Of a stretch of DNA of 42,517 nucleotides, positions 4,259 to 42,517 are shown piece by piece. The stretch spans positions 1 through 42,517 of IMG/VR virus record IMGVR_UViG_3300015259_000003; one strand, 5' to 3'. Below the pieces are notes generated by a model that was not told where the DNA came from, ran no database searches, and saw only the letters and a program-made list of their open reading frames with translations. Source of the stretch: a virus. Its lineage: Duplodnaviria; Caudoviricetes. A program made the translations under genes and the position numbers. The number at the start of each line of letters is the position of its first letter. The first letter of the stretch is position 1.

Positions 4259-5914
4259 TTACCCCAAGATATTCCCCGACTGAAATGCGTAATCTATATG
4301 CGCCAAAACTGTATCACCCGTAGACAGTGTCGCTAACGTAGCAGCGCCAGCGAACCCAACGTCGCCGGTCGACGCCCATTCAGCAAATACTTCGGTGCCA
4401 CCGCCCCATACACCGAACCCCCACAGCCCGACACCCCACAGTGATCCCGCACTAACAATCACAGGCAATAACCCAGCAGGAACGCTGTACTTATAATTCA
4501 CAGCGACGTCAATTGATATTTGAGGCTGAGCTGACCCAGTGAATACCGGGCGTACCAGCAAGAACTGTTTTTCAAGCGCTGGAGTACCAAAGTGACTAAA
4601 TGCAGGCATGATTGTACCTGCAATAGGAGTACCCGACGACGGAGCAGCACCAAACGCTACATTATCTAGCGGGCCGTTCAATATAAGAAGCACCTTGCCG
4701 GTGGTAGTCCCAGCGAACATATACCCAGCTGTGAAACCCAGTGAATACACAGGTATTCCGCTGAACTTACACCACTGATTTAGTGACGTACTCATCACGT
4801 ATTGCAGTTGCTGCGACGACCCATAGTCAGGTACGTTCACCAGCATTACACGCTCACTGGGGTGAACTAGCATCTGCCAGCCGCGCTGGGTGAAACTAGC
4901 ACGAAGATCAGTACCAATCAATGGTCTAATCTTGGAGGAGTATTCCTTAGAGCTGGCAACAAGAAAGTCAGCACCACCACGAGTGACATAGCTAATGGGG
5001 AAGATACCATCGGCACTGGAGATAACGAGGTCTCCACCATACTGAGTAAAAGCGCGACGTCCCACTGGGATTTGCCCGACGAACCAAGTTCCAACGAGTC
5101 CAAAGGTAGACGCTGAGGCTGGGTCAGTTCCTTTAAAGACACAGACATCACCATTACTCCCCACCGCCACTAACAAGTCGTCAATGCCCGTACCTGCATC
5201 AATAGTCCAGTTAGCAAGATAAGCTAAATGCCCACCATGCTTGAACATAGGGCCAAAGTCGAAGTAAGCCCCCGCACCATAAACAGCACTGGCTGGCAGA
5301 TAGGCTGCCTTAGTAGTATTCTTAACAACGAACCACGCCCGACTTTTCCACTCCAGCACCTGGACGAACACTGTCGGATCAGTTACAGATACCTGTGTTC
5401 CACCAGCGCCGAGCGTGACTTTCACCCACGTAGTGCCATCATATGTAAAATATCCGTCAGCCTCACTACACGCCAGCATATACGCGGTGCCAGCGGAATT
5501 AGTGAACATTGTGCTGTTCATCCAACCGGCATCGGCCGCAGCAGACAGAGCTTGCGACAGCGTAGGGGAACTCGTAGTAGTTGTTATCTCGTAGATGCCA
5601 GCATCAATGGACGCGAACAGCTTACCCGGCATAGTTGTCGGGGTTATTAGAAATGAACCACCAGGAAACGATGTAGTAGACGAAAAGTATGGGAGAATGC
5701 CGCCGACAGCGGCATTCCCAGGCATGTTTATCGCCCATTCACTATACCCCTTACGGCAGTGAACACCACCAGCATCTGGAATCCAGTTAGTTAGGACTAC
5801 AGCATCTGTCTCCGGCATAGCTGCCAGCCCATCACGAGCATTCAGCCCGCCATTGGGAGCAGGTATGGTCTTTATCTGCGCACGCGCAGGAAATGTTGGG
5901 GCTCTACGAACCAT
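4259..5914 (-). CDS. Tail tubular protein B / packaged-DNA stabilisation protein (P22 gp10-like nozzle)
   Basis: 551 aa beta-rich protein with PAPNGGLNARD start, located after the adaptor gene. Confidence 0.75.
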   Translation of the reverse strand: MVRRAPTFPARAQIKTIPAPNGGLNARDGLAAMPETDAVVLTNWIPDAGGVHCRKGYSEWAINMPGNAAVGGILPYFSSTTSFPGGSFLITPTTMPGKLFASIDAGIYEITTTTSSPTLSQALSAAADAGWMNSTMFTNSAGTAYMLACSEADGYFTYDGTTWVKVTLGAGGTQVSVTDPTVFVQVLEWKSRAWFVVKNTTKAAYLPASAVYGAGAYFDFGPMFKHGGHLAYLANWTIDAGTGIDDLLVAVGSNGDVCVFKGTDPASASTFGLVGTWFVGQIPVGRRAFTQYGGDLVISSADGIFPISYVTRGGADFLVASSKEYSSKIRPLIGTDLRASFTQRGWQMLVHPSERVMLVNVPDYGSSQQLQYVMSTSLNQWCKFSGIPVYSLGFTAGYMFAGTTTGKVLLILNGPLDNVAFGAAPSSGTPIAGTIMPAFSHFGTPALEKQFLLVRPVFTGSAQPQISIDVAVNYKYSVPAGLLPVIVSAGSLWGVGLWGFGVWGGGTEVFAEWASTGDVGFAGAATLATLSTGDTVLAHIDYAFQSGNILG

Positions 5915-10771: not shown

Positions 10772-12301
10772 TTACTCCATCAGTAAAAGTAGTTCCTCTT
10801 CCCTACGGCGGCGTAGGCGAGCCTTGGCTTCCACTTTAGCCTTCTCAATAGCCCGCGTCACTTTATCAGCATCAGCTCGCGCCACTATTAGATCGCGTAC
10901 CTCAGCTAGTGCAGCATACACCTGCGGCCCCACGACTGGCAAATCTGCCGCCAGTGGATTTGCAGGGGGCGCAATTCGCGCAGGTTGAGGATACAGAGCG
11001 GCGATCACGGCTACTAACTCTTCACGAATCTTGTTGCGCGAATTCTCAACTTCCTCTTCTTTCTTGTATCGTTTTCCACCACGCCGCGGCTTCGGCAAAC
11101 CACCATGAAATATAGCTGGTACGAAACCAGGAACTTTAGCCGCTGTAGCTGCATCACTAAATACGACTGTGTCAGCCGCTACAGCGGTTATTGCCGCAAG
11201 GACAACAGAAGCTATAGCACTGTCACTGAAGGTCCTAGTATCAGCGGCAACAGCAGTGTGTGATAAACTAGATACAGCGCTATCGCTAAATGCTACAGAG
11301 TCTACTGCTACCGCAGCCTGCGCTCTAGCGGCGACCGCACTGTCACTGAAGGTCCTAGTGTCTGTAGCAACAGCAGTATGCGAAAGAGATGCGACTGCGC
11401 TGTCACTAAAGGTCCTCGTATCAGCGGCAACTGCTGTTCGCACAGTAGTAGCGACCGCGCTGTCACTAAAGGTCCTAGTATCAGCGGCAACAGCAGCGTG
11501 TGAAAGTGAAGCTACAGCACTATCACTGAAGGTCCTCGTGTCAGACGCAGTAGTGACAATTCCGCCAGCAGCTTCTGCGAAAATTACGACAGTGCCAGCG
11601 TATTCCTCAGTGCCAGTAAGAACTCCCCACATGGCCTCGGCCTTCTGGCCGATCCATTCGCTATTAATCTTACGGTAGTCAGCCGAGTAGCCTATCGACG
11701 AATTAGAATCCTGCTCAATACCCGCGTTGATGTACCACTCAGGACGATCAATACCAACGGCAGCGTTGTTCCCTCCGCAACACAGCACCGCAATAGCAAT
11801 GCCTTTTTCAGTTATGATACCGCTCTTGCCAGAAACCGGACGGGCGTCCGTGCCAGTGGACGTACCAGCCGCATTGACTATTGGTGATGCCTTAACACCG
11901 GACAACTCAATTAAGTTGCCATTTCCCCACGTCGCGTTGCTAGGACCAACTACTGTGACACTTTTGTCGCCTGCACTGACATTGCTCTCATAGTAGACAA
12001 TTGCTGACTTAGTTGTGCTGAACGTTGCTATTGCGGCCTGCGTCGCCGTCATACCGCCAATGCTGTTAGGAATGGCATCCCCTCCAGCCTCATTCCACGC
12101 CATCACGGCAACGAGAGTGTTGCCAGCAGTAAAGCCGGTCAGCGTCAGCGTCATCGTCGTGCCGGCACCGGCGATCTGCCCCTTCGGGCCGATTTTAACT
12201 ACTTGCGCAGTAGTGTCAGTGGTCGAGACTGCGGCGTCGTTCGCACCTACCCAAGACTCGCCGACGAAACTCAGTGATGACCCGACAACATGGCCGGTCA
12301 T
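10772..12301 (-). CDS. Putative virion fibre/decoration protein with seven 20-aa repeats
   Basis: Beta-rich N-terminal domain, repeats AVAADTRTFSDSAVASLSH, charged C-terminus ending RRRREEELLLLME. Confidence 0.7.
   Translation of the reverse strand: MTGHVVGSSLSFVGESWVGANDAAVSTTDTTAQVVKIGPKGQIAGAGTTMTLTLTGFTAGNTLVAVMAWNEAGGDAIPNSIGGMTATQAAIATFSTTKSAIVYYESNVSAGDKSVTVVGPSNATWGNGNLIELSGVKASPIVNAAGTSTGTDARPVSGKSGIITEKGIAIAVLCCGGNNAAVGIDRPEWYINAGIEQDSNSSIGYSADYRKINSEWIGQKAEAMWGVLTGTEEYAGTVVIFAEAAGGIVTTASDTRTFSDSAVASLSHAAVAADTRTFSDSAVATTVRTAVAADTRTFSDSAVASLSHTAVATDTRTFSDSAVAARAQAAVAVDSVAFSDSAVSSLSHTAVAADTRTFSDSAIASVVLAAITAVAADTVVFSDAATAAKVPGFVPAIFHGGLPKPRRGGKRYKKEEEVENSRNKIREELVAVIAALYPQPARIAPPANPLAADLPVVGPQVYAALAEVRDLIVARADADKVTRAIEKAKVEAKARLRRRREEELLLLME
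11150..11560. repeat. Coding tandem repeat, 60 bp period, about 7 degenerate copies
   Basis: Unit similar to GC(A/G)CT(G/A)TCACT(G/A)AAGGTCCT(A/C)GT recurs near 11217, 11337, 11397, 11457 and 11517, with more diverged copies near 11157 and 11277. Confidence 0.9.
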
Positions 12302-18797: not shown

Positions 18798-18944
18798 TGC
18801 TATATGACCTGGGCTTCCGATAGTGGTTAACATAGTTAACTAAGTATACTCGTGGCATCACTATCATGTGCTATATGACCTGGGCTTCCGATAGTGGTTA
18901 ACATAGTTAACTAAGTATACTCGTGGCATCACTATCATGTGCTA
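18798..18944. repeat. Perfect 71 bp tandem duplication
   Basis: 18798-18868 equals 18869-18939, plus TGCTA; the unit contains GATAGTG/CACTATC arms and the palindromes GTTAAC, TAGTTAACTA and GTATAC. Confidence 0.95.
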
Positions 18945-25921: not shown

Positions 25922-26131
25922 ATGAGTGAATTTAAGCGTGGCGATCTTGTAAAGCACATGATCACTCGGAAAACTTATAAGATCGTATCATCAGCAGAAA
26001 ACTGTAAATTAAAATCTGGAGCTGACTGGGTGCCCGCATATGCCTATCAAGGTATGTTGGACACTGACGACATTGTCTACGTGCAAGAGCAGAAGAGAAT
26101 GGAAGAGAGGTTCGTCCGTGTTGACATTTGA
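25922..26131 (+). CDS. DUF1653-like small SH3-type protein, 69 aa
   Basis: GDLVKH...TYKIV...VYV...ERF pattern; GGAG RBS. Confidence 0.6.
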   Translation: MSEFKRGDLVKHMITRKTYKIVSSAENCKLKSGADWVPAYAYQGMLDTDDIVYVQEQKRMEERFVRVDI

Positions 26132-27965
26132 CTACGAAACAGAAGGCATTGTCGGCAACCCGATACACAATCCTCCACGACCTGTTGGAGTGTCTATCAA
26201 AAATGACGGCCAGCCCAGTTTCTACTGGGCATGGGGTCACCCTACAGAAAACAACTGCACTTGGGAAGAAGGTAGAGCTCATCTCATCGCTTCTCTAAAA
26301 TTACATAAAGAATGGCTCGCGCACCACGCGCCATTCGAAGCTGCTGTCAGTCGTAAGTGGTTTAAAGTGGTTAAACGAGTCCCGGAGAATTTTCATGACA
26401 CTGTCTACCTCTTATTTCTATCCGATCCCTACGCGCCCAGCTTTTCGCTCAAGCCTAGCGCCGAACGTGTACTCAATTGGGCGCCAGAGGAGCAAGACGA
26501 GCTACGCGCATGGATTCTCGCACATGTCACCCAAGCAACGGCGAAGGATTGGGGCGCATACATCTGTCTTGCGCCAGGTAAATTGGTCGGGCGCTATGCC
26601 TGCGGTGACACCGACCGCACGTATGCGCTGTTTCAGCGACTCTATCCCGAGATTGTTGAAAATGGCATGGCTGAAGCGTACAGGCGCGAACAGAAATGCC
26701 GCCCTATCTTCGATGGTGTGAGTGAACGTGGCGTTCGTGTTGATATGGAAAGGCTTGAACGTGAAACTGCGGTCTACCGCGCGGCGCAGAAAATATCAGA
26801 TGATTACATATTCTCGAGGCTGGGAGAATTCGAGCTTAGCAAGGATGCCCAACTGGCAGAAGCTCTTGATAGAGCAGGTCAAGTCACGAACTGGGTTCTC
26901 ACACCCACTGGTAAGCGCTCAGTCGCACGGAAAAACCTGGTTGGCAATATCAGGGATACTAAGCTCTACTCGCATCTGGCGTACCGTGGTGCTCTCGAAA
27001 CATGTCTGGGAACTTTTGCTGAGCCTTGGATGGCTAAGGCTCACGCAGAAGGGGGTAGGTTACACCCAGAATGGAACCAAGTGCGTGGTAATCGCGGAGC
27101 GGATGGGGACATTAGCGGCACGCGCACGGGTAGGCCATCCTGTCAAGGACCAAACCTGCTAAACGTTCCCAATGATTTCGAAGAATTAGATATCCCAGAG
27201 GAAATCAAGAAGTACTTCGCTTCGCTTCGGCGGCAAAAGGTATTCAAAGAACTAACAGACATAATTTACTGCCGAAGATACCTACTTCCAGAGGAAGGTC
27301 ATGTCTGGTTGAAGCGAGATTTCGACGCACAAGAAATGCGTATCCTGGCCCACTTTGCAGAAGGTAAGCTCTATGAAGCATTCAAAGCCGACCCAACCAC
27401 TGACCCCCACGTCGCCGTCTCAAAGATTATTCTTGACAACACGGGCATACAGCTTACTCGTAAGCATACGAAGATCACTGGTTTCGGTATTATGTATGGT
27501 AGAGGCGTTGATAATTTGTCTATTGCTCTTGGCGTTGACCCAGTGCAGGGGGCCAATACCCGCAACGCCTACTACGAAGCACTCCCAGAAGTGCGCTGGC
27601 TTGCAAATGAGACAAGAACGTGCGGTCGCAACGGCACCCCAATCGTTACATGGGGTGGACGGAAGTATTACCGTGAGCCTAATCCCGATCGTGACCTCTC
27701 ATACAAGCTACTGAATTATCTAATTCAAGGTAGCGCAGCGGACCAGACTAAAGACGCCATGATTGCGTGGGAAAACACTCGTGGACCAGATGACATGATG
27801 ATAGCTGACGTGTATGACGAACTTGATATGTCTGCGCCAGCGGAAGAAGATAAACGTGCCATGGTATGTCTACGCACGGCTATGAATGCAGACAGGTTTG
27901 ACGTGCCCTTCCGTTCGAAGGGATACAAAGGAGCTAATTGGGCAGACGTGAAGGAGTGGATATGA
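26118..27965 (+). CDS. polA: DNA polymerase family A with 3'-5' exonuclease
   Basis: ExoI FDYET, TRTGRPS, motif A DFDAQEMRILAHF, motif B RKHTKITGFGIMYG, IQGSAAD, motif C VYDE; GTG start after GAGG. Confidence 0.95.
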   Translation: MLTFDYETEGIVGNPIHNPPRPVGVSIKNDGQPSFYWAWGHPTENNCTWEEGRAHLIASLKLHKEWLAHHAPFEAAVSRKWFKVVKRVPENFHDTVYLLFLSDPYAPSFSLKPSAERVLNWAPEEQDELRAWILAHVTQATAKDWGAYICLAPGKLVGRYACGDTDRTYALFQRLYPEIVENGMAEAYRREQKCRPIFDGVSERGVRVDMERLERETAVYRAAQKISDDYIFSRLGEFELSKDAQLAEALDRAGQVTNWVLTPTGKRSVARKNLVGNIRDTKLYSHLAYRGALETCLGTFAEPWMAKAHAEGGRLHPEWNQVRGNRGADGDISGTRTGRPSCQGPNLLNVPNDFEELDIPEEIKKYFASLRRQKVFKELTDIIYCRRYLLPEEGHVWLKRDFDAQEMRILAHFAEGKLYEAFKADPTTDPHVAVSKIILDNTGIQLTRKHTKITGFGIMYGRGVDNLSIALGVDPVQGANTRNAYYEALPEVRWLANETRTCGRNGTPIVTWGGRKYYREPNPDRDLSYKLLNYLIQGSAADQTKDAMIAWENTRGPDDMMIADVYDELDMSAPAEEDKRAMVCLRTAMNADRFDVPFRSKGYKGANWADVKEWI

Positions 27966-28390
27966 ACCAGAAGGAAAGAATAGAAATTCGCTGCGAAAAA
28001 AGACAAGGCTGGATTGGGGTGGACCTTGATGGTACACTTGCTGAGTACTATGGGTGGGATGGCAGACCAAAAGACGGAGGTGGTATCGGTGAGCCAGTGG
28101 AAGAAATGAGAATGAGGGTTATGTCGTGGCTTGAGGCTGGAAAAGACGTACGTATTTTCACAGCGCGCGTGGCTCCATCGCGAAATGATTCCGCTTCCAT
28201 TTTAATGGCTCAGCAGCAGTTCCACTGGATTCATGAGTGGTGTCTTGAACACCTTGGGCGTTCGCTACCTGTGGTGTGCCAGAAAGACATGGCGATGATT
28301 GAGTTATGGGACGACCGCTGCGTACAGGTGATTCCTAACACAGGCGAACCCGCTGTGAACTACAAGCCAGATGACCGAGAGGTATTCTAA
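27962..28390 (+). CDS. HAD-superfamily phosphatase (PNK phosphatase-like)
   Basis: VDLDGTLA motif I, IFTAR motif II, K...WDDR motifs III/IV. Confidence 0.85.
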   Translation: MNQKERIEIRCEKRQGWIGVDLDGTLAEYYGWDGRPKDGGGIGEPVEEMRMRVMSWLEAGKDVRIFTARVAPSRNDSASILMAQQQFHWIHEWCLEHLGRSLPVVCQKDMAMIELWDDRCVQVIPNTGEPAVNYKPDDREVF

Positions 28391-30966: not shown

Positions 30967-31512
30967 ATGGCCAAGTCCCATGTGAAACCAGCAGCGAAGA
31001 CGGCCGCTGCCAAGAAACAACCTGCTAAGGTTGAAGTTGGCCCAGAAATGGGCAAAGTGGCGAAGAACATCGCTGCTGTTGCGGAAGCCCCGAAGAGCGC
31101 CCCGGCCAAGGAAGCCAAAGTTCCTCTTGCCAAGATGCGCGGCCCACGTGGCGTGGCGGAAACTGCGAAGATTCACCTGCTCTCCAAAGACAATCCCAAG
31201 CGTCCTGGCAGCAAGGCTTCCCAAGTGTTCGCGTGCTACAAGGATGGCATGACGGTCGGTGCGTTCTGTGATGCCGTTGATGCAACGCCCCAAAAGGGCC
31301 AAGCGACTCCGAACCTCGTGTATGACGCGGGCCACGGGTTCATCAGCATTGACGGTTACGACCCCGGTGAGATCATCAAGCCGAAGGAACGTGCACCAAA
31401 GGTAGAAAAGGCCCCAAAAGCCTTGTCTGGCCGCGGTGGTAAGGGGTCCGCTTCTGCTCCTAAGAAGGATGCTGAAGCGGAGGCTGATGCCAACACCGAA
31501 ATGGTGGACTGA
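30967..31512 (+). CDS. Lys/Ala-rich (histone H1-like tails) putative DNA-binding protein
   Basis: Low-complexity K/A/P arms flank the core IHLLSKDNPKRPGSKASQVFACYKDGMTV...NLVYDAGHGFISI; AAGGA RBS. Confidence 0.75.
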   Translation: MAKSHVKPAAKTAAAKKQPAKVEVGPEMGKVAKNIAAVAEAPKSAPAKEAKVPLAKMRGPRGVAETAKIHLLSKDNPKRPGSKASQVFACYKDGMTVGAFCDAVDATPQKGQATPNLVYDAGHGFISIDGYDPGEIIKPKERAPKVEKAPKALSGRGGKGSASAPKKDAEAEADANTEMVD

Positions 31513-31606
31513 ACAAGAGGTTACGCACGTCTATCCTCGGCCTGTAAGAACATGCCAGTCTGTGATCCATGGCTGGATATAGCGGGCTACAAAGTAAGTG
31601 CCGACT

Positions 31607-31629
31607 GGCCCCCGTAAGGGGCCGTTTTT
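31607..31629 (+). terminator. Rho-independent terminator just upstream of the glycosyltransferase
   Basis: GGCCCC-CGTAA-GGGGCC then GTTTTT. Confidence 0.7.
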
Positions 31630-31642
31630 ACATGGAGATATA

Positions 31643-32422
31643 ATGGACATACTCATACCCACGTACGGTCGTGCGACGTGGAGTCAGCAGCACACGGCTC
31701 GCGCACTGATAGATGACAACATTACGCCACACCTAGTTATACAGCGACGTGAGGTAGACGAATACGACCAAATTGGATTTCTTGGTGTGAACCGCAGCAT
31801 TCTGCCTGCTGGTATTCAGACCATTGGGCCTACACGTGACTATATCATTTATGACATGCTTGGAAGTGACATGGTCTGCATGCTGGACGATGACCTACAC
31901 TTCGCCGTGCGCCGTGATGACGACAGAACAAAGTTCCGGCAGCCAATACATGGTGACTTTTATCTCATGTTTGACCATATAGAAGCAGCGCTGAAAAAGC
32001 ACCCCATGGTCGGCATTGGTGCTCGCGAAGGTGGCAACCGCGTGACTGACGAAATAGTGCTGAACACACGAGTTATGCGCGTATTAGCATTCCGCAGGTC
32101 ATACCTGAAGAAACACTGCATTACCTTCAGCAAAGTTGAAGTAATGGAGGACTTCCATGTGGCTCTGAGCATCCTGCGAAGTGGTGCAGACATTTGTGTA
32201 TTGAACAACTGGGTGAGCAACCAAGCTGGGGGTAGCGGCGCGCCTGGAGGATGCAGTGCATACCGTACTCCAGCCCTCCAGACCGCCGCAGCGCACAAGC
32301 TGGCAGCGCTGCACCACGGCTTTGTCCGCGTGGTCCAGAAGGCCACGAAAGGGGCGTGGGGTGGTGGCACTCGCACGGATGTAGTGGTAAGCTGGAAGAA
32401 AGCACGGGAGTCGGCACTGTGA
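31643..32422 (+). CDS. GT-A glycosyltransferase, TET/JBP-associated (GREB1/JGT-like) type
   Basis: ILIPTYGRA, IGPTRDYI, MLDDDL (DxD), VMEDFHVAL, GGCS.YRT, VVVSWKKA motifs; GGAG RBS. Confidence 0.8.
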   Translation: MDILIPTYGRATWSQQHTARALIDDNITPHLVIQRREVDEYDQIGFLGVNRSILPAGIQTIGPTRDYIIYDMLGSDMVCMLDDDLHFAVRRDDDRTKFRQPIHGDFYLMFDHIEAALKKHPMVGIGAREGGNRVTDEIVLNTRVMRVLAFRRSYLKKHCITFSKVEVMEDFHVALSILRSGADICVLNNWVSNQAGGSGAPGGCSAYRTPALQTAAAHKLAALHHGFVRVVQKATKGAWGGGTRTDVVVSWKKARESAL

Positions 32423-32601
32423 CTGCTAAGGAAATGTATGAGAAGGCGACCTACGGGTGCCACCCTACATGGGATCAATTGGGCGAGACAACGAAAGCTA
32501 TCTGGGAAGAAAGGGGAAATCATGACAAGGATAGAGGAACTGGCGTACTGGATAAACGAGCGGTACAAGATGAAACTAAGAAAGGAAAACCCAGGAGATA
32601 A
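32419..32601 (+). CDS. Hypothetical protein, 60 aa
   Basis: GTGA overlap with the glycosyltransferase stop, GGGAG RBS; PTWDQLGETTKAIWE motif. Confidence 0.5.
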   Translation: MTAKEMYEKATYGCHPTWDQLGETTKAIWEERGNHDKDRGTGVLDKRAVQDETKKGKPRR

Positions 32602-33337
32602 TCTGTGGGCTTACGGCTGGAGCAACGACCCCTACATGGGGACAGTTCGTTACTGCAACGTTCATCGTGAAGATGACGCTGTGACAAGATGGCTGGCTGA
32701 ACATTGGAGACCGCAGCACCACGAAGTCTGGGAAATTGTGCTAGCTCGCATGGTGAACTACACACCAACTCTGGAGTATATCAACCAAGATATACTAGAC
32801 TTAGAAACAATTAAGAAGAATTTGAAGGACAGACGTGCGGCAGGTGAAAAGGTGTTCACTAGCGCTTATACAATCAGCACTTGTGGTAAGTCAATGGACA
32901 AAATTGACTATGTCATCGACTGGGTGGTGCAGGCAGTGCAAGAGCGCGGAGAGCTATGGGAAGAGCCCATTACTTTGGAGAAGTGCCACAGACAACTAAC
33001 TTACATTGACGGCCTCGGCAGTTTTTTAGCCGCGCAGGTAGTAGCAGACCTTAAGAACACGGCTGGGCACCCCCTTCAGACCGCTCCAGACTGGTGGACG
33101 TGGTGCGCCCCTGGCCCTGGTAGCCTAAAGGGGCTTCAAGCGTTCTACGGGGCTAAGATTGCTGCTAGAACATTTGCCAACGACATTAAAGAGGCATGGA
33201 TGTGTATGGAGGGGCTAATTGATAGGAGAGTGCCACGTATAGGTATGCAGGATTTCCAAAACTGCCTGTGCGAATTTTCAAAGTACGTAAGAGTCAAGGA
33301 GGGAGGTCATGTCAGAAACAGATACCCTGCGAGGTGA
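32522..33337 (+). CDS. aG/PT-pyrophosphorylase clade 1 (helical, HhH glycosylase-like) DNA hypermodification protein
   Basis: WINERY, DPYM..VRYCNVHREDD, GLGSFLAAQVVADL, GPGSLKGL, QNCLCEFSKY motifs; AGGGG RBS before ATG 32522. Confidence 0.85.
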   Translation: MTRIEELAYWINERYKMKLRKENPGDNLWAYGWSNDPYMGTVRYCNVHREDDAVTRWLAEHWRPQHHEVWEIVLARMVNYTPTLEYINQDILDLETIKKNLKDRRAAGEKVFTSAYTISTCGKSMDKIDYVIDWVVQAVQERGELWEEPITLEKCHRQLTYIDGLGSFLAAQVVADLKNTAGHPLQTAPDWWTWCAPGPGSLKGLQAFYGAKIAARTFANDIKEAWMCMEGLIDRRVPRIGMQDFQNCLCEFSKYVRVKEGGHVRNRYPAR

Positions 33338-33497
33338 ACTTCGCGTGTTGGGGCTAATTCACGGGGGTGCGGCCATCAATACAATTGTGACTTACTACGA
33401 GAACCCCGACGACTGGGTCATGAAGCAGTTTGTTTCAGAAGCCCAACTTCATCAATTTGCCAGAGATGAAATGCTGGCTGTTCGAAAGGATTCATGA
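33309..33497 (+). CDS. Hypothetical protein, 62 aa
   Basis: GGAGG RBS. Confidence 0.6.
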   Translation: MSETDTLRGELRVLGLIHGGAAINTIVTYYENPDDWVMKQFVSEAQLHQFARDEMLAVRKDS

Positions 33498-33826
33498 TGA
33501 GCTATCCAGGCGAAAGAGCGCAACAAATTAAAGTAGCTGAAGAACGGAACGGAGGAAGTGTCGTTCGCGAGAAAACTGAAATGGAGATGCAAATTGATGC
33601 AACACAGATGTCGCTTGGCAATCTTAGCAGACAATTTGAAAGATTGTTGCAAAGATGCGAAGTAGGCGGGATACTGCAAATAGCTCCACCAGAAAAGCCT
33701 AAAGAGAGCCTTAAATCAGGCGTGCCGACATCTTGCCCGTTGAGTGAGCTGATCACCCAATTTCGTCTCGGTACTGATACTGTGTGCGAGCGCATCTCTG
33801 GTCTAATTGACAGATTAGTGGTGTGA
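33494..33826 (+). CDS. Hypothetical helical protein, 110 aa
   Basis: AAGGA RBS, ATGA overlap. Confidence 0.65.
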   Translation: MMSYPGERAQQIKVAEERNGGSVVREKTEMEMQIDATQMSLGNLSRQFERLLQRCEVGGILQIAPPEKPKESLKSGVPTSCPLSELITQFRLGTDTVCERISGLIDRLVV

Positions 33827-33904
33827 CATGAGGCACACATACTCAATTCTAAGCATTGCCACTAGACACCCGCACCTATTTCAACGCATGTTCAGGAGAC
33901 AATC

Positions 33905-34879
33905 ATGATACACTGTATAACAGTACGCAATGTGAACGAGGCCTTTGTGGAGGGGTTCATACATCTGCGAACGGAAGGCATTGAAGAACCATCACGCAAT
34001 GGGCCAGTCCTAGTCGCCCCTGGCCCCGTAGTCACAACCTACACTAATCCGGAAGAACGTGTTCTCTTCAACCCAGTACGTGACGCCAACCCAGTGTTCC
34101 ATTTGATGGAGGCTATATGGATGCTGGCGGGGCAGCATCACGTTGAATGGCTGTTGCAATTTAACAAGCGATTCGCAGACTACGCTGAGCCTAATGGCGT
34201 CCAGCACGGAGCCTATGGGTATCGCTGGGCCACGCATTTCGGCATGGATCAAATCTACAATGCAATTGTTGAACTCCGACAAAACAGGGAAAGCCGGCGC
34301 GTAGTAATCGGTATGTGGGACCCAATAGCGGATCAACTCGCGCCTGTAAGAGATGTCCCATGCAACACTCACATATACCTTGATTGTCGTGGCGGCAAAC
34401 TGAACATGTCTGTCTGCAACCGCAGTAATGATATGTTGTGGGGTGCTTACGGAGCCAATGTGGTCCACATGAGCATGTTGATGGAATTAATAGCCCGTGC
34501 TGTAGGCATACCAATTGGGGAATACCGTCAATTTTCTAATAACTTCCACGTTTACACTGAGGGCTACCAAGTTCAGCATTTCCTGCGAGTTCCGCCCAGC
34601 TACGAATTTGACTTTTACTCACAGAACTTATGCCACCCGTGGCCACTGTTCGAAAGTGGGGAGACATGGGAAGATTTCACAAGTGACTGTGAGCAATTGG
34701 TGTCTGGCAGCTACCTGTACGCCACGCAATTCTTCGAGCTAGTTGCGCGGCCACTGTATGATGCATATCTTCTGCGAAAGAAAGGACTTGACATCAGCAA
34801 AAACATTGAGCAAATGCCACAGAGCAATGACTGGGTGCTGGCTTTCAAACAGTGGGTTGACAGAAGGAGTGAAACATGA
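33905..34879 (+). CDS. Thymidylate synthase homologue, probable dUMP hydroxymethylase
   Basis: SRNGPV...RDANPVFHL as in the YuA/M6-type enzyme; catalytic PCN; RSNDMLWGAYGAN with the Asn that specifies dUMP; NFHVY. Confidence 0.85.
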   Translation: MIHCITVRNVNEAFVEGFIHLRTEGIEEPSRNGPVLVAPGPVVTTYTNPEERVLFNPVRDANPVFHLMEAIWMLAGQHHVEWLLQFNKRFADYAEPNGVQHGAYGYRWATHFGMDQIYNAIVELRQNRESRRVVIGMWDPIADQLAPVRDVPCNTHIYLDCRGGKLNMSVCNRSNDMLWGAYGANVVHMSMLMELIARAVGIPIGEYRQFSNNFHVYTEGYQVQHFLRVPPSYEFDFYSQNLCHPWPLFESGETWEDFTSDCEQLVSGSYLYATQFFELVARPLYDAYLLRKKGLDISKNIEQMPQSNDWVLAFKQWVDRRSET

Positions 34880-35436
34880 GCGCAAATGACAGGCAAGTGG
34901 GTGGAAACCACTACAAAACTGGTGGAGAAGAACACTGGGACCGCGCGCATCGGCTTGGCTTGGACTACTTTCAGGCCAATATCACCAAGTATGTGGAACG
35001 AGCGTGGCTGAAGAACGGAACGGAGGACTTGAAGAAGGCCCGTCACTATCTGGACAAGTACATTGAGCTACAGGGTGGTGAACAGACAGGCCCAGTGATC
35101 ACTGGACTGGTGTTCAAGGGTAAGACATACGATTTGTTTGAAGCACAGGCGCTACTGGCGTCCATGGAGTCTGCTGAACCTACTAAGCCTCCAGGCGGAG
35201 CCATGAGCCCAAGCGTGGACTTCGTGCAAACACACTCCGACGATGTGTGGCAGTGTGAGGGCTACTACGGAGACGGCACGCAATTGTACCGGCATAGGGT
35301 AGACCGCAAGCTGATTAGGTGCCAAGCTCTTAGTATCGCTTACGAACTACATGCAGCGCAAGCAAGTCAGGAGGCACAGATGCGTGCCGCACTGGACTGG
35401 CGCTCGTCGCTGGTGCTCGCGGACGCTGGGGTCTAG
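34876..35436 (+). CDS. DUF3310 domain protein (T7 gp1.7 nucleotide-kinase related) with C-terminal extension
   Basis: QVGGNHYK...NITKYVER...KNGTEDLKKARHYLD. Confidence 0.8.
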   Translation: MSANDRQVGGNHYKTGGEEHWDRAHRLGLDYFQANITKYVERAWLKNGTEDLKKARHYLDKYIELQGGEQTGPVITGLVFKGKTYDLFEAQALLASMESAEPTKPPGGAMSPSVDFVQTHSDDVWQCEGYYGDGTQLYRHRVDRKLIRCQALSIAYELHAAQASQEAQMRAALDWRSSLVLADAGV

Positions 35437-36397: not shown

Positions 36398-39300
36398 CTA
36401 CTGCACCAATGCCCGAATCTGAGGCTCTAAGTAAGCTTGATCAATATCGACGATGACCTTTGCCTTCGTGTAATTCCACCAAACGCCGGTAGCAGTTGTC
36501 AAAGCAGGATTAGCACCGTCATAGTGTGCAATCTTGATGTACGCCGGAAAGGTGTTGCTTGCGCAGTTTATTTCGAATGAATCGACAGCAACTACTCCGT
36601 CAATCCACACCTGGGTGCGACTCGTTGCACCTGAGATGTCAAGATGCCAGCGAATAACAATGTCGTGGAAGACATCAGGGGTAAAGAAAGCCCCGAGCTC
36701 AAAGTTGGTGTAGTTGGAGATTGAATCTCGAAGAATCTGGAACCGCAGAGCGAACCCTGCCCCACCCGACCTATACAGCGACATAGCCCATCCGCCGTCA
36801 GTCGCGCCGTGCAGGTTGGGGATGGCAAAGGCCGTATTGCTGTTATAGACGGCTGCGGAAACAATGCACTTGAAAGCCAACCAGCCCGTACTGAGGTTGC
36901 CAAAGGTGACAACCTCGCTCGTGCTAATGTCCATCCGGCGACCGTTAGAATCCGCTACGTCGGTATCTCGGATGGCATGGCGTATCGTCTGTACCCCACC
37001 AACGTTGACTTTCCCAAACCGGTGAACGACGCCGTTGACAGTATTTGTTATCAACCCTCCTCTGGTATAACCAGTAACGTCGGAGATACTTGAAATCAAC
37101 GGGAAATCTACAGCGTCATACTGGAGTCGCCCCGGTTGAGAAGCAAAAGGAATGCTTGCGTCGATAGACCAAGCGACTGGAATACTGGATGCCGCATTGA
37201 CAGTAATCTGGAACTGTGCAGTCGTTTGCGCCCCCAAAGCGTCTTGAATTGTAGCGGTTTCAGGAAATACGCCAGGATTGAGGAAGGTTCCACTGATGAT
37301 GAACGTGTTTACATTCATCTCCGGCAGGAAGGGGTTCACGCTCACGATCTGGTACGGCCCTTGCCCACCAGCCACACTAAAAACTGGTCCACTCGATCCT
37401 GCTTGCCCCTGGGTGAAGACGTTGTTGAAGATCAACACAGTCGCCGTCAATGGAGTAGGAGCTACGACAGTATACGCAATAGAGTCACTTGGATATTGAT
37501 CACCATTGATAGTAGCTAGCTCACGAACTTTCACCGAATGCCCAACAGGGCTCGTAGGAACAGGATAGACCGCAGTGGTCATCGTCTGAATAACTGCTTG
37601 ATCAGACTGACGAATAGCCTGCCAAACACGTGCTGATGGGGTTACTGGAGCTCCATCACTAGTCCAGGTAGCTGGAGTAATTGTGTATGTCGTTCCAGCT
37701 GCTAGTGTAGCAGACCCAGTGTAGGTAACAACGATTTGGCCATTAGCCCCGGAGCCAAACTGCGTAGAGATATTACGACCATCACCACCGCCACCCCCGC
37801 CGTACAGACCGCCGTCGCCGGCAGTCTGTTCGCCTGACCCACCACCACCACCACCACCTGATCCATGCGAAGCATCAATTTCCTGGCCTTGACCACCGAA
37901 ACCACCAGTATTTTCTGTGGCTGTCCACTTGCCAGCGCCACCACCACCACCACCGAACGTCGCGTCGGTGCCAGGGGCGTCCTGCGCCCCACCGGTGCCG
38001 TGACCGGTGCCGGCGAAGTTGTCACCGCCGTTGCCGCCGGCTGTCGCACCACCGACCGCGCCCGCAGTGCCGCCGCCTGAGCCACCACCCCCGCCAGCGC
38101 CGAAGTTAGCTCCAGTGCAAGAACCACCATTCTTACCATCACCATTAGGGCCAGCGGCTCCACCACCCCCGCCCCCGCCAGAATCACTTCCGCCAGTGGC
38201 ATTTCCACCCGCGCCGCCGCTAAACTTGATCGTGCCGATACCAGAAGCGGCAGCGCCGCCAGCGCCGCCCAGCGACGTGTTGAAGTCACCGCCGACGCCA
38301 CCCTTTGCCCCAACCTCGGACGCGGCAAGGCTCGCGCCGTCGAACCAGGTATCACCACCATTAGCGTAGGCGGTCGCACCCCCTGTACCGACTTGCATCG
38401 TCGCGCCGTTCGCGGCAGTGACATTCGCCTTACTAGAATAACCGCCGCCGCCACCACCCGGACCTTGGTTCAGCGCCGGCAAAGAATCACCGCCGGCAGC
38501 ACCAGCACCCCAGGTCTGGACAAGATCAGCAATTCCTGGCCAGTCAACAGGAGCTACGAATGATGCACCACTTGTAATAAAAATCTTCTGGTTAGCCGAC
38601 CCTGATCCAACTAGTGACGGGTCAGTAGGAGAAGCTATTACGGGTGCTCCAGCTACCGTCACGATATTGGAAAAGTACTCAATGGAAACCAGCCCCAAAC
38701 TGGAGCCAGAATTACCAGTACGAATCAACCCAACTTGCACCCCATTTCCAAGCTGAGCTATGTTAGTATTCGTAGACGTAGAAGATGAACGAACCCCACG
38801 CGCAAACCTCACTCCACCTATAACCTCGTACGCCTGATAACTATCAGACCCAGTAACATTCCATGTACCGGGAGCTGACGTCAGGGCCACATTAGTCTGT
38901 TGTGTTCCACTAGGCACTAGCGTCGGAGCAACGCTATTACTCGGCGTGACACCAGTGACGGCAGCAGTAGTAAGAACAGATGTCTTCGGATCACTACGCA
39001 CACCCGTGACATTATCAATTGCCACCTGTGTAATAGTTAAAAAGAACGTATTGTCTGACGCTGTTGGAATGTAGCTAAGCGAATTTGAGTTAGGAATGGC
39101 CGACGACGGCACACCCGGCTTAACTTTATTCCAAGTAAACTCATTAGTAACTGCATGCCCAGCGAACAGAGTAACTGAACTCGCTACAGCAACGACCTCA
39201 GTTCCAATTGTAGGAGTGACGTGCCCACTAGAAAACGTTGGCAGTGCATCTACTACTGGCTTGTTACTAGTGACCGAAAGCTGCTGCTTAATCGCAGTAA

Positions 39301-39508
39301 TTTCAGCCTCTACAGTAGCCCCCGTGGACACCATTATAACTTCAGACGCATTAGTCGTATCACCAGCCAGAACGTTCAATTGAGCCTGAAGGTCATTGAT
39401 GGCTAACTGAATAGCCGATAAACTAATAGCTGTGCTACCGCCAGTCGGTGGATTTTTGCCAATTGACGAGCCTATTGCGTCTTCAATTAATTCTATAGGA
39501 TTGCCCAT
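36398..39508 (-). CDS. Large tail fibre/receptor-binding protein: Ig-like domains, Gly-rich domain, C-terminal ConA/polysaccharide-lyase-like domain
   Basis: 1036 aa; N-terminal coiled coil, PSNSVAPTL-type Ig repeats, GGGGGG-rich segment, FHDIVIRW...QVWIDG...YIKIAHY tail. Confidence 0.75.
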   Translation of the reverse strand: MGNPIELIEDAIGSSIGKNPPTGGSTAISLSAIQLAINDLQAQLNVLAGDTTNASEVIMVSTGATVEAEITAIKQQLSVTSNKPVVDALPTFSSGHVTPTIGTEVVAVASSVTLFAGHAVTNEFTWNKVKPGVPSSAIPNSNSLSYIPTASDNTFFLTITQVAIDNVTGVRSDPKTSVLTTAAVTGVTPSNSVAPTLVPSGTQQTNVALTSAPGTWNVTGSDSYQAYEVIGGVRFARGVRSSSTSTNTNIAQLGNGVQVGLIRTGNSGSSLGLVSIEYFSNIVTVAGAPVIASPTDPSLVGSGSANQKIFITSGASFVAPVDWPGIADLVQTWGAGAAGGDSLPALNQGPGGGGGGYSSKANVTAANGATMQVGTGGATAYANGGDTWFDGASLAASEVGAKGGVGGDFNTSLGGAGGAAASGIGTIKFSGGAGGNATGGSDSGGGGGGGAAGPNGDGKNGGSCTGANFGAGGGGGSGGGTAGAVGGATAGGNGGDNFAGTGHGTGGAQDAPGTDATFGGGGGGAGKWTATENTGGFGGQGQEIDASHGSGGGGGGGSGEQTAGDGGLYGGGGGGDGRNISTQFGSGANGQIVVTYTGSATLAAGTTYTITPATWTSDGAPVTPSARVWQAIRQSDQAVIQTMTTAVYPVPTSPVGHSVKVRELATINGDQYPSDSIAYTVVAPTPLTATVLIFNNVFTQGQAGSSGPVFSVAGGQGPYQIVSVNPFLPEMNVNTFIISGTFLNPGVFPETATIQDALGAQTTAQFQITVNAASSIPVAWSIDASIPFASQPGRLQYDAVDFPLISSISDVTGYTRGGLITNTVNGVVHRFGKVNVGGVQTIRHAIRDTDVADSNGRRMDISTSEVVTFGNLSTGWLAFKCIVSAAVYNSNTAFAIPNLHGATDGGWAMSLYRSGGAGFALRFQILRDSISNYTNFELGAFFTPDVFHDIVIRWHLDISGATSRTQVWIDGVVAVDSFEINCASNTFPAYIKIAHYDGANPALTTATGVWWNYTKAKVIVDIDQAYLEPQIRALVQ

Positions 39509-40619: not shown

Positions 40620-41896
40620 AGCACCCGATAGGAAAAGTTAAACACGTGCGTCAATGCTGGGGAAGTGTACCCAGCTACGAATGTTAGAGTAGCCCTGTCG
40701 TTAGCTGCATCAGCTAAAATCCATCCTGGATTGGCAACCGCCGCTGATGCAAGCATACTTGTCCCAATCAACTGTTCAGCCGCAGTTAGTGCTGAAGCTA
40801 CCGGCAGCGAAATTCCCAATAATGTTCCAGCGGCAGCCGTAGGATCAATGTCAACAGCGCCAGACACATGAACCTCGTTCCCCACGCGCATCCAATGGCA
40901 TAGGTACGCAGTACTAGAATCTATATTCCCAACATTAAAGAGTGTCGGAGTATATGTACCAAATGTCACATTGTCACTATTAAATCCGCCACCGGCAACG
41001 ACGTTGTTTGTTAAATCAAGATCAGACGCAGTTACCGCTCCACTGAAGGCACCAGTCGAGGCGGTAAGACCAGCCATTAATACAGCGCCTGAGAAAGCAC
41101 CAGTGGTGGCCCCTGTGAAAGCCCCGCCTATTGCAAGCGACGTAATACCAGAAAGTGCCCCACTAAAAGTGACGTCTCCACTAGTAGCAACAGAAATCTT
41201 GTCAGATCCGCCGCTATCGTCACGAAGAGTCCAGTTTTGGCCGCTAACAGGCAAGCCAATTGACCATTGTCGTTGAGACTGTTGGACCATGACATAACGC
41301 GCCGCTACGCCATTGGCTGTATTTACTACTGGCGGTGTTGCCCCACCGAAAGTGACAAGCCCATTAAAGTCAGCTGCAACAGAAAACAAGCTATTCCACC
41401 GGCTAGCCGTGGAACCAAGATCATAGGAAGTAGTAGCACCGGGGAGAAAATGCCCCGCCGCGTCTAGTCTAGCCCGTTCTGCGCCGCCAGTAGACCACGC
41501 AAGGATGTCGGCCCCTGGGGACCACATACCCGTATTAAGATCACCAAGAAAAGAATATGCTGGAAGACTATTAGATCCTAGCGCTAACGCTATCCCGGAT
41601 GCAAACCTAGCTATATCAGCATTAAGAATACTAACACCAAGAACTCCCGCGCTAACACGATATAAGCCAGACGAAGGTTCAGCAGCGAATGATATACCTG
41701 GCAGTGCCTGTGTGCCAGAGAACAACTTCAGCGCCGCAAGCATGTCACCACGTCCAGACCTATCCAATGAGTCAGTAATCCCTTGTGCTACGTCTGTTAG
41801 TGTAGGATTAGCCCATGTATCTTGAATAACGGTCCCAGTAATTACGGGATTGATACCCGCAGGAACCGTGTAAACGCCTGCTCCAGAACGCGGCAT
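40616..41896 (-). CDS. Tail fibre/spike protein, 426 aa
   Basis: MPRSGAGVYTVP...WANPTLTDVAQGITDSLDRSG virion-anchoring N-terminus, PGISF...SGLY fibre repeats, GTYTPTL...RVGNEVHV tip. Confidence 0.8.
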   Translation of the reverse strand: MPRSGAGVYTVPAGINPVITGTVIQDTWANPTLTDVAQGITDSLDRSGRGDMLAALKLFSGTQALPGISFAAEPSSGLYRVSAGVLGVSILNADIARFASGIALALGSNSLPAYSFLGDLNTGMWSPGADILAWSTGGAERARLDAAGHFLPGATTSYDLGSTASRWNSLFSVAADFNGLVTFGGATPPVVNTANGVAARYVMVQQSQRQWSIGLPVSGQNWTLRDDSGGSDKISVATSGDVTFSGALSGITSLAIGGAFTGATTGAFSGAVLMAGLTASTGAFSGAVTASDLDLTNNVVAGGGFNSDNVTFGTYTPTLFNVGNIDSSTAYLCHWMRVGNEVHVSGAVDIDPTAAAGTLLGISLPVASALTAAEQLIGTSMLASAAVANPGWILADAANDRATLTFVAGYTSPALTHVFNFSYRVL

Positions 41897-42517
41897 TAGT
41901 CTTCTCCCGTAAATGATTGCCCGGCTCCGTACCCAAGATACGGAGCAGCTTTTCTAATTTGTTCAGCCAGTGCTCGCTGCGCCGCAGTTTCGCCGAACAT
42001 GAACTTAGCACCCTTGGCCGTCTGGCCAGCAAACGACAATCCGTAAAACGGAGCAAGAGCCATTCCAATTGGGTTACCAGCGACGGCAGCCCCTCCGGCC
42101 GCAGTAGCCCCCGCCATCTTCGCAAGTGGTAACATCGTACGACGCGCTGCCATAACAGCAGTACGCGCCTCTTCTTGAGTAGGGGTCAAACCCATCACAC
42201 GGTTTGCAGGTTCCAGCAATTCACGTTGCGTAGCGTTCTCAGCCGTGGCGAATCCTGGGCCTTTATACTCCCGTGTGACAGCTGCAACACTGGGATCAGT
42301 GTGAAACGCTGGCTTGTCAGCCGCTGCGCGAAACTTCAAAAAATCGCTGAACCGAGATTCTACATCACGCAATTGCTCGCGTTCAGCAACAGAGAGCGCA
42401 GGATCACGAATCATTTCATCAAACCTAGTGCGTGCCCGAGCGAGATTCTTATGCGCTTGCGCAGAAAGTTCTCCGCCCTTAGGATTGAAACTGGCAACAG
42501 CGTCGTCCAACAGACGC
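41896..42517 (-). CDS. Internal virion / DNA ejection protein, 3' part (begins at 1220)
   Basis: In frame with the ORF starting at 1220 across the circular junction. Confidence 0.85.
   Translation of the reverse strand, partial: RLLDDAVASFNPKGGELSAQAHKNLARARTRFDEMIRDPALSVAEREQLRDVESRFSDFLKFRAAADKPAFHTDPSVAAVTREYKGPGFATAENATQRELLEPANRVMGLTPTQEEARTAVMAARRTMLPLAKMAGATAAGGAAVAGNPIGMALAPFYGLSFAGQTAKGAKFMFGETAAQRALAEQIRKAAPYLGYGAGQSFTGED
42395..42517. repeat. Terminal direct repeat, right copy
   Basis: Identical to 1-123. Confidence 0.97.

Follow-up and report, generated by a model that had tools for sequence, protein, structure and literature searches.

Among the closest described relatives of the gene cassette analysed here are the thymidine-hypermodification clusters of M6/YuA, PaMx11, ViI, PhiW-14, SP10 and SH-Ab 15599 (PMC5889632, PMC8989533, PMC13458397). 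The cassette lies on the plus strand at positions 31643-35436 of the virus record IMGVR_UViG_3300015259_000003, the whole of which, 42,517 nucleotides, is called the window below. It encodes a glycosyltransferase (GT), a clade 1 aG/PT-PPlase, a thymidylate synthase (TS) homologue and a DUF3310 protein, and all four genes were found, co-oriented, where a first reading made from the letters alone (the sequence-only reading) had placed them. The record is a complete phage genome of 42.4 kb, as that reading had assumed: its first and last 123 nt are identical, forming a terminal repeat, and it is classed as 100% complete. With the M6-type clusters the window shares a predicted, orthologous dUMP hydroxymethylase, the clade 1 gene and the DUF3310 gene (gp61), in the same order beside the gene of the family A DNA polymerase (PolA). 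It differs in that those clusters have 5-hydroxymethyldeoxyuridine (5-hmdU) kinase, clade 2, pyridoxal-phosphate (PLP), radical SAM, Nmad5 or HD genes, none of which is present here, while a GT of the TAGT family occupies the position that the kinase has in M6.

HTVC023P-type pelagiphages share with the window a small podoviral genome and, near PolA, genes for TS, for aG/PT-PPlase1 and for a beta-glucosyl-HMC-alpha-glucosyltransferase, and differ in also having a 5'-deoxynucleotidase (PMC9599517). The accessible text of that paper views the set as extending the M6 system and mentions neither a missing kinase nor glycosylated 5-hydroxymethyluracil (hmU). Two cultured phages, phiJL001 (AY576273, gp18/19/22/24/26) and Brevibacterium phage LuckyBarnes (NC_047851, gp38-41), carry clade 1, TAGT and Asn-type TS genes and, like the phage studied here, no kinase or clade 2 gene above threshold. 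Nmad5, HD and dCMP deaminase genes are found in addition in phiJL001, and a second TAGT gene in LuckyBarnes; a glucosyltransferase and a hydroxymethylase-like TS are already annotated in the GenBank record of phiJL001. The gene set is not new, being in print for the pelagiphages and present in both cultured phages, and it is not peculiar to this genome. As to the base, which the sequence-only reading called a candidate new one, in the literature searched, mostly open-access (including PMC5889632, PMC12686479, PMC11946847, PMC13229309, PMC7302621 and PMC10201439), we found no report of measured glycosyl-hmU in phages, of direct O-glycosylation of hmU in a phage, or of the DNA chemistry of phiJL001 or LuckyBarnes.

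Direct O-glycosylation of hmU is known from base J of trypanosomes. The base J system (JBP + JGT) shares with the window the kind of product, predicted here to be O-glycosyl-hmU in DNA, and the GT-A motif of JGT; it differs in that hmU arises there by TET/JBP oxidation, whereas here it would come from the nucleotide pool via the TS homologue, with no PF12851 match. The enzyme families were defined by Iyer et al. 2013 (NAR 41:7635), who reportedly predicted such sugar modifications. Phage 5mC-TET-GT and T-even 5-hydroxymethylcytosine (hmC) systems use the same GT-A family, acting post-replication on a 5-hydroxymethylpyrimidine (bioRxiv 10.1101/2023.12.21.572611); the acceptor predicted here is hmU, not hmC, and there is no cytosine methylase or dioxygenase. 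SP-15, YerA41 and Carin-5 also carry sugars at T positions, but on a phosphorylated pentyl linker and in large genomes rich in sugar genes (PMC12686479), and none such are found here. The system as we read it works like base J or T-even glucosylation on pre-replicative hmU, and it is a member neither of the kinase/amino acid:DNA transferase (AADT) systems nor of the JBP-based base J systems.

Predicted glycosylation of hmU in DNA

The gene content of the window points to a phage in which hmU probably replaces thymine and a sugar is likely placed directly on hmU in DNA, giving a base J-like nucleotide. The TS homologue would make 5-hydroxymethyl-dUMP, the DUF3310 protein would phosphorylate this hmdUMP, and a HAD-family protein may deplete dTMP. 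PolA (26040..27965, plus strand, PF00476) would then build hmdUTP into phage DNA, so that hmdU would stand in place of thymine, and the GT would link a sugar to the hydroxymethyl group on DNA. The sugar donor would be a host nucleoside diphosphate (NDP)-sugar, because Pfam and PHROG scans of the genome revealed no gene for sugar synthesis (these family scans covered 66 of the 242 open reading frames (ORFs), picked as likely genes).

The GT gene (31643..32422, plus strand, start codon ATG 31643) encodes a TAGT-family GT-A glycosyltransferase that matches PF20691 (E 5e-14; 53.1 bits against a cut-off of 27.5) and PHROG 842 (E 2e-42) and is 37% identical to phiJL001 gp22; no PDB sequence relative was found. 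Its residues R10, D82-D84 and E169-D170-F171 fit the R...DDD...ED[FY] pattern, a motif that aligns active phage DNA GT-A enzymes with the trypanosome base J glucosyltransferase (bioRxiv 10.1101/2023.12.21.572611). Its predicted reaction is the direct linkage of a sugar to the hydroxymethyl group of hmU in DNA. In the same survey, by Pyle et al., many GT-A contigs lie beside TS genes, and its accessible text gives no sorting into uracil and cytosine types.

The TS homologue (33905..34879, plus strand, PF00303) carries a dUMP hydroxymethylase signature. Compared with E. coli ThyA, its D150 corresponds to L143, D176 to D169 and N185 to N177, and the catalytic Cys is C153; the dUMP-specifying Asn of the sequence-only reading is this N185. 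According to the residue rules of PMC13326640, N177 specifies dUMP and D177 dCMP, an acidic residue at 143 marks hydroxymethylases and D169N marks dCMP hydroxylases. The D150/C153/D176/N185 string is identical in M6 gp58, phiJL001 gp24 and SP10 gp188, and the protein is 39% identical both to M6 gp58 and to phiJL001 gp24. Among the TS sequences from GT loci, N occurs at 177 in 89/89, D at 169 in 89/89 and D at 143 in 88/89. With this residue pattern and its likeness to M6 gp58, the most fitting reading of the TS is a dUMP hydroxymethylase of the M6 gp58/SPO1 type. A 5hodCMP synthase of the RB69 gp48 type (D169N + N177D) does not agree with D176 and N185, and cytosine-type and hydroxylase-type TS in general were rejected on D150, D176 and N185.

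These residues also bear on the reading in which dTMP, hydroxymethyl-dCMP or 5-hydroxy-dCMP is the product of the TS and any sugar would sit on cytosine. The characterised TAGT-family enzymes do act on hmC (bioRxiv 10.1101/2023.12.21.572611), and a set of clade 1, TAGT and dCMP-type TS genes exists in Microbacterium phage Clock. Under the rules cited above, however, N185 is of the dUMP type, D150 is of the hydroxymethylase type and D176 lacks the D169N mark, and the nearest named TS relatives are M6-type hydroxymethylases, so that we consider a cytosine-directed or dTMP-making TS very improbable.

The DUF3310 gene (34876..35436, plus strand, PF11753) matches the nucleotide kinases of PHROG 236 over residues 1-72 (E 2e-18), and DUF3310 has been linked to T7 gp1.7 kinase activity (PMC11797047). 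The protein is likely to be a non-P-loop, T7 gp1.7-like nucleotide monophosphate kinase for hmdUMP, judged from these matches. DUF3310 was present in 83/91 loci with 3.5 kb downstream; a different small gene was present in six, both in none and neither in two.

Exchange of glycosyltransferase and kinase among related loci

The comparison comprised 212 loci and the window; 209 carry clade 1 and 152 of these are distinct. The loci were chosen by likeness to the genes of this phage; the ratio of locus types is no census, and related loci are not independent. Among the 152 distinct clade 1 loci, the gene upstream of clade 1 was a GT-A gene in 92, another GT-like gene in 15 (7 + 8), a kinase gene in 33 and neither in 12, and GT and kinase never occurred together. 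All 12 loci with neither have <1.5 kb upstream; when the count was restricted to the 103 distinct loci in which the stretch upstream of clade 1 spans 1.5 kb or more, 75 had a GT-like gene (from three unrelated families), 28 a kinase, none had both and none had neither. Clade 2 was present in 0/107 GT loci. We also analysed whole records (n = 39, 29 with GT and 10 with kinase; 23 of the 34 IMG/VR records among them are at least 90% complete). The kinase profile matched 0/29 GT records versus 9/10 kinase records, and clade 2 was above cut-off in 0/29 versus 9/10; local profiles recovered the two missed kinase/clade 2 cases among the kinase records, and a single weak clade 2 match in phiJL001 falls on its clade 1 gene. 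The mutual exclusion of GT and kinase, together with the absence of clade 2 from the 29 GT records, indicates that the GT replaces both the kinase and the transferase. The sequence-only reading had proposed a sugar route instead of the kinase and amino-acid route; the TS active site speaks for it, as does the fact that GT and kinase strictly exclude each other next to clade 1, and the product is a prediction.

On a clade 1 tree (FastTree, 123 clade 1 cores, no support test; some kinase loci were removed by the trimming rule), GT-A, GT-B-like and kinase loci are intermixed. The GT-like genes outside GT-A fall into two groups. In seven loci (L074 at 4594-5502, L093, L109, L152, L154, L181 and L079) the GT slot holds an uncatalogued 300-aa family, which is probably GT-B and has one weak glycosyltransferase match (E 0.004), and in eight loci it holds a GT-B-like family with weak PF00534/PF13439 matches. 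In L152 the 300-aa gene is followed by a radical SAM/SPASM gene, and in L194 (999-2827) an FkbM-type methyltransferase gene lies beside the GT-B-like gene, upstream of clade 1, which suggests a methylated sugar. The swap can also be seen in a cultured pair, the actinobacterial phages LuckyBarnes (L215, 6514-10529) and Montesquieu (L214, 7971-16535), which have similar 517-aa TS fusions: the former has its two TAGT genes and no kinase, the latter kinase, clade 2 and PLP genes.

The sequence-only reading had recognised no kinase, transferase or tailoring enzyme in this genome, and the profile scan found nothing of the kind either. In a six-frame genome search PF18748 (kinase), PF18724 (clade 2), PF18746 (clade 3), PF04055 (radical SAM) and PF12851 (TET/JBP) gave no match at E<=1. 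Local profiles for kinase, clade 2, PLP and radical SAM enzymes, run over 795 stop-to-stop frames including the genome junction, gave a best E of 0.16. A cryptic kinase among the small ORFs was rejected, as was an enzyme spanning the junction, where none of the tested profiles matched the junction ORF of 576 aa. In phage Montesquieu the annotated clade 2 gene escaped PF18724 and the annotated kinase gene escaped PF18748, so that the absence of kinase and clade 2 rests on several imperfect profiles; with Montesquieu's own two proteins as queries, the best E values in this genome were 3.2 and 0.95. The further statement that Walker A motifs occur only in the terminase and two helicases was roughly right. 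The strict pattern matched six frames, among them those of the terminase, of a 509-aa gene (10772-12301) and of the DUF3310 gene's tail, and the matches other than the terminase look like chance.

We then considered whether the DNA could contain plain hmU, alone or with T, and the GT be barely active or directed at a target on the virion or host surface. In the survey of Pyle et al. ∼65% of the GT contigs lie near no base-modification gene (bioRxiv 10.1101/2023.12.21.572611), the restriction-site signal in this genome is weak and it lacks detected sugar-donor genes. On the other hand, the GT belongs to the DNA-acting TAGT family, its fixed place in 92 loci is between genes of DNA metabolism, and it fully excludes the DNA kinase. 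Six near-complete relatives without the cassette served as controls; they were taken from the capsid query because the PolA query gave no viral loci. TS, clade 1 and GT are all missing together from these relatives (0/6 for each), which indicates that the cassette moves as a unit. Taken together, this makes plain hmU decidedly unlikely.

The clade 1 protein

The gene at 32522..33337 (plus strand) encodes a stand-alone clade 1 aG/PT-PPlase with a helix-hairpin-helix (HhH) fold and an invariant Cys250. It matches PF18723 (E 1e-30; 107 bits against a cut-off of 25), its ATG at 32522 is the start used in the protein collection, and the protein is 30% identical to M6 gp55; no PDB sequence relative was found. 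Cys250 is kept in 144/144 clade 1 sequences. A structure model folded from these 144 sequences had a pLDDT of 95 and was used in place of a single-sequence fold, which was discarded (pLDDT 38). Foldseek returned nothing at E<=0.001 for the model, and the weak matches were mostly HhH glycosylases. Upon re-alignment with VIA, the clade 2 enzyme PaMx11 gp46 came first (Z 10.5, rmsd 3.9, 213 aligned residues), with QNG1/DUF2419 and glycosylases close behind (Z 8-9.4).

The likeness to PaMx11 gp46 bears on the possibility that clade 1 is itself a group transferase, which would displace the hydroxyl or an activating sugar with an amine, amino acid or polyol. The GT would then activate hmU instead of the kinase, or glycosylate the clade 1 product, and the final base would be more complex than base J. 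The closest solved structure is indeed a glycine transferase, Cys250 is invariant, the GT sits exactly at the kinase position, and SP10, a producer of glutamyl-thymine, has a kinase-clade 1 fusion (L216, 12383-14296) and no clade 2 detected in its genome, so that its glutamate-transferring enzyme is not evident. The SP10 argument is weakened since PF18724 can miss real clade 2 genes. An O-glycoside is, moreover, a poor leaving group. Clade 2 enzymes need a metal-binding Glu-Thr pair, four and three residues ahead of the Cys (E222/T223/C226, PMC13458397); given the tentative Cys register, this pair is Gln246-Asn247 in the clade 1 protein here, and Gln-Asn replaces Glu-Thr in 100/103 GT-locus and 27/29 kinase-locus clade 1 proteins. 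Thus the site does not track the partner, and no active-site signature parting GT-partnered from kinase-partnered clade 1 proteins was found when sought. The clade 1 gene occurs in M6, SP10 and PhiW-14; it is missing from SPO1, from MW202897, which has GT and TS, and from P26218, which has kinase, clade 2 and TS. The last two cases show that clade 1 is not the essential transferase; M6 gp55 is dispensable for glycine transfer (PMC8989533). We regard the group-transferase reading as fairly unlikely.

No function of clade 1 was reported in the literature searched. In virions of M6, SP10, ViI and PhiW-14 there is no hmU, which becomes either the hypermodified base or thymine, and gp51 with borohydride yields thymidine (PMC8989533). 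A task found in both types of system, with kinase or with GT, and not required for the main transfer would be in keeping with a conversion of leftover hmU to thymine in DNA, and we put this forward as possible, if doubtful. The clade 1 protein may flip out non-glycosylated hmU, Cys250 may attack C6 and the resulting methylene may be reduced to thymine, a sequence of steps that we propose equally tentatively. Virion DNA would then hold T and glycosyl-hmU and little free hmU. SP10 leaves room for clade 1 as a transferase, which counts against this role. The widest form of the proposal is more doubtful still: clade 1 would be a Cys-dependent HhH-fold DNA dehydroxylase without need of phosphorylation, hundreds of small phages would carry base J-like sugars on hmU, installed by at least three unrelated GT families repeatedly swapped with the kinase, and hmC would likewise be dehydroxylated in Microbacterium cluster EA phages.

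Several cultured phages touch on the clade 1 gene. Rhodoferax phage P26218 (L001, 5552-9044), a podovirus with clade 2, kinase and a TS of the hmU type and without clade 1, is a natural test of clade 1 function. Microbacterium phage Clock (L213, 3484-7128) combines clade 1 and TAGT genes with a TS that has Asp at 177, probably a glycosyl-hmC system in a cultured actinophage group, and clade 1 matches were seen in 42 Microbacterium records.

Protection of the DNA, contrary evidence and neighbouring genes

The likely purpose of a sugar on hmU is the blocking of host nucleases, and we compared the observed/expected (O/E) counts of six-base palindromes. In 11 pooled GT genomes O/E rose with T content (0.53, 0.69, 0.77 and 0.85), as it also did in three kinase genomes; in the six controls the values were less regular (0.68, 0.56, 0.60 and 0.92). 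The trend fits protection at T positions and proves nothing; the protection from restriction put forward in the sequence-only reading thus has weak sequence support (p = 0.07). In a 19-kb stretch of phiJL001 (L005) GC-only six-base palindromes have an O/E of 0.49, with CCGCGG 0 versus 13.6 expected, and T-containing ones of 0.85-0.9, a pattern compatible with shielded T positions.

A number of results weigh against direct glycosylation of hmU with clade 1 acting on the remainder. Palindrome avoidance is no more than suggestive: GC-only palindromes were avoided more than T-rich ones in 11/11 GT genomes versus 3/6 controls, a difference that is not significant (p = 0.074), and the controls are richer in GC, a confounder. 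In this genome the palindrome effect is small (log ratio 0.18), and CTGCAG and AAGCTT are still under-represented. The PHROG label of the GT is that of a T-even enzyme which adds a second sugar and not the first. The two alternative GT families reach only sub-threshold Pfam matches (best E 0.002 and 0.004), and the first of them has no PDB sequence match. The genome scans detected no gene for a dCMP deaminase, a dUTPase, an HD nucleotidase or a MazG-like protein, and HD, HAD and MazG are all lacking from 10/27 GT loci whose flanks are long, so that the replacement of T may be partial. As to clade 1, Cys250 aligns with the clade 2 Cys (M6 gp51) only in a non-significant profile alignment (E 0.34), and the protein has no cofactor-binding domain to supply hydride, no reductant being evident. 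Clade 1 also occurs with the dCMP-type TS (Asp at 177) of phage Clock and is thus not uracil-specific.

The cassette is real, widespread and partly described at the gene level, and its base chemistry is a prediction. If the prediction is true, a sugar branch is added to thymidine hypermodification, simple enzymes become available for labelling hmU in DNA, and phages are pointed to as the source of JGT-like enzymes. Where the kinase is missing, clade 1 stands in isolation; it alone among the conserved genes of these clusters has no function reported in the literature searched, and this setting makes the hmU-to-thymine question in M6, SP10 and PhiW-14 DNA directly testable. The interest lies in the clean exchange of kinase and GT, in the two cultured phages that carry the cassette, phiJL001 and LuckyBarnes, and in this handle on clade 1.

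The system is larger than the minimal four genes of the sequence-only reading. A Lys/Ala-rich 181-aa protein with a small conserved domain (30967..31512, plus strand) is a relative of phiJL001 gp18 (E 2e-9) and matched no named family. Its gene occurs in 46/60 GT loci versus 1/21 kinase loci and is absent from 6/6 cassette-less relatives, a distribution that places it in the cassette system. A small HAD-family phosphatase with a DLDGT motif (27962..28390, plus strand) has weak PHROG 1238 and 415 matches and Atlas neighbours. Its homologues lie within the cassette in L009/L066 and directly after TS in L006, and there were only three distinct sequences, past which the profile did not grow. It probably belongs to the system and may be a dTMP phosphatase replacing the HD nucleotidase of M6-type clusters. 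Inside the cassette a 62-aa gene between clade 1 and TS (33309..33497, plus strand) is kept in close relatives (22 BLAST matches among the loci), and a 110-aa gene (33494..33826, plus strand) was not found in other loci and is probably a passenger. Between GT and clade 1 there may be a further gene, of 60 aa (32419-32601, plus strand), which overlaps the clade 1 start and has no Pfam match. Just upstream of the GT start lies a terminator-like hairpin with a T run (31606..31634, plus strand), a consensus match only; six terminator-like sites were found versus 7.3 expected in shuffles, and a promoter scan of the window gave fewer matches than chance.

In the rest of the genome the virion and packaging arm lies on the minus strand and the replication arm, which encodes PolA, a PD-(D/E)XK nuclease, a VRR-type endonuclease and an SNF2 helicase, on the plus strand. 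The best matches of the capsid among annotated phages were BUCT555 (70%) and Mx8 (62%). The minus-strand ORFs 41896-42510 and 707-940 form one gene, of 576 aa, across the circular junction, which probably encodes an internal virion protein. Two further minus-strand proteins have no family match, the 509-aa structural-arm protein (10772-12301), which contains 60-nt repeats in its gene, and a 1036-aa glycine-rich tail-fibre-like protein (36398-39508). Finally, an exact tandem duplication of 71 nt lies at 18798-18939, in the non-coding gap between the arms, and may be an origin region, a promoter region or an assembly artefact.

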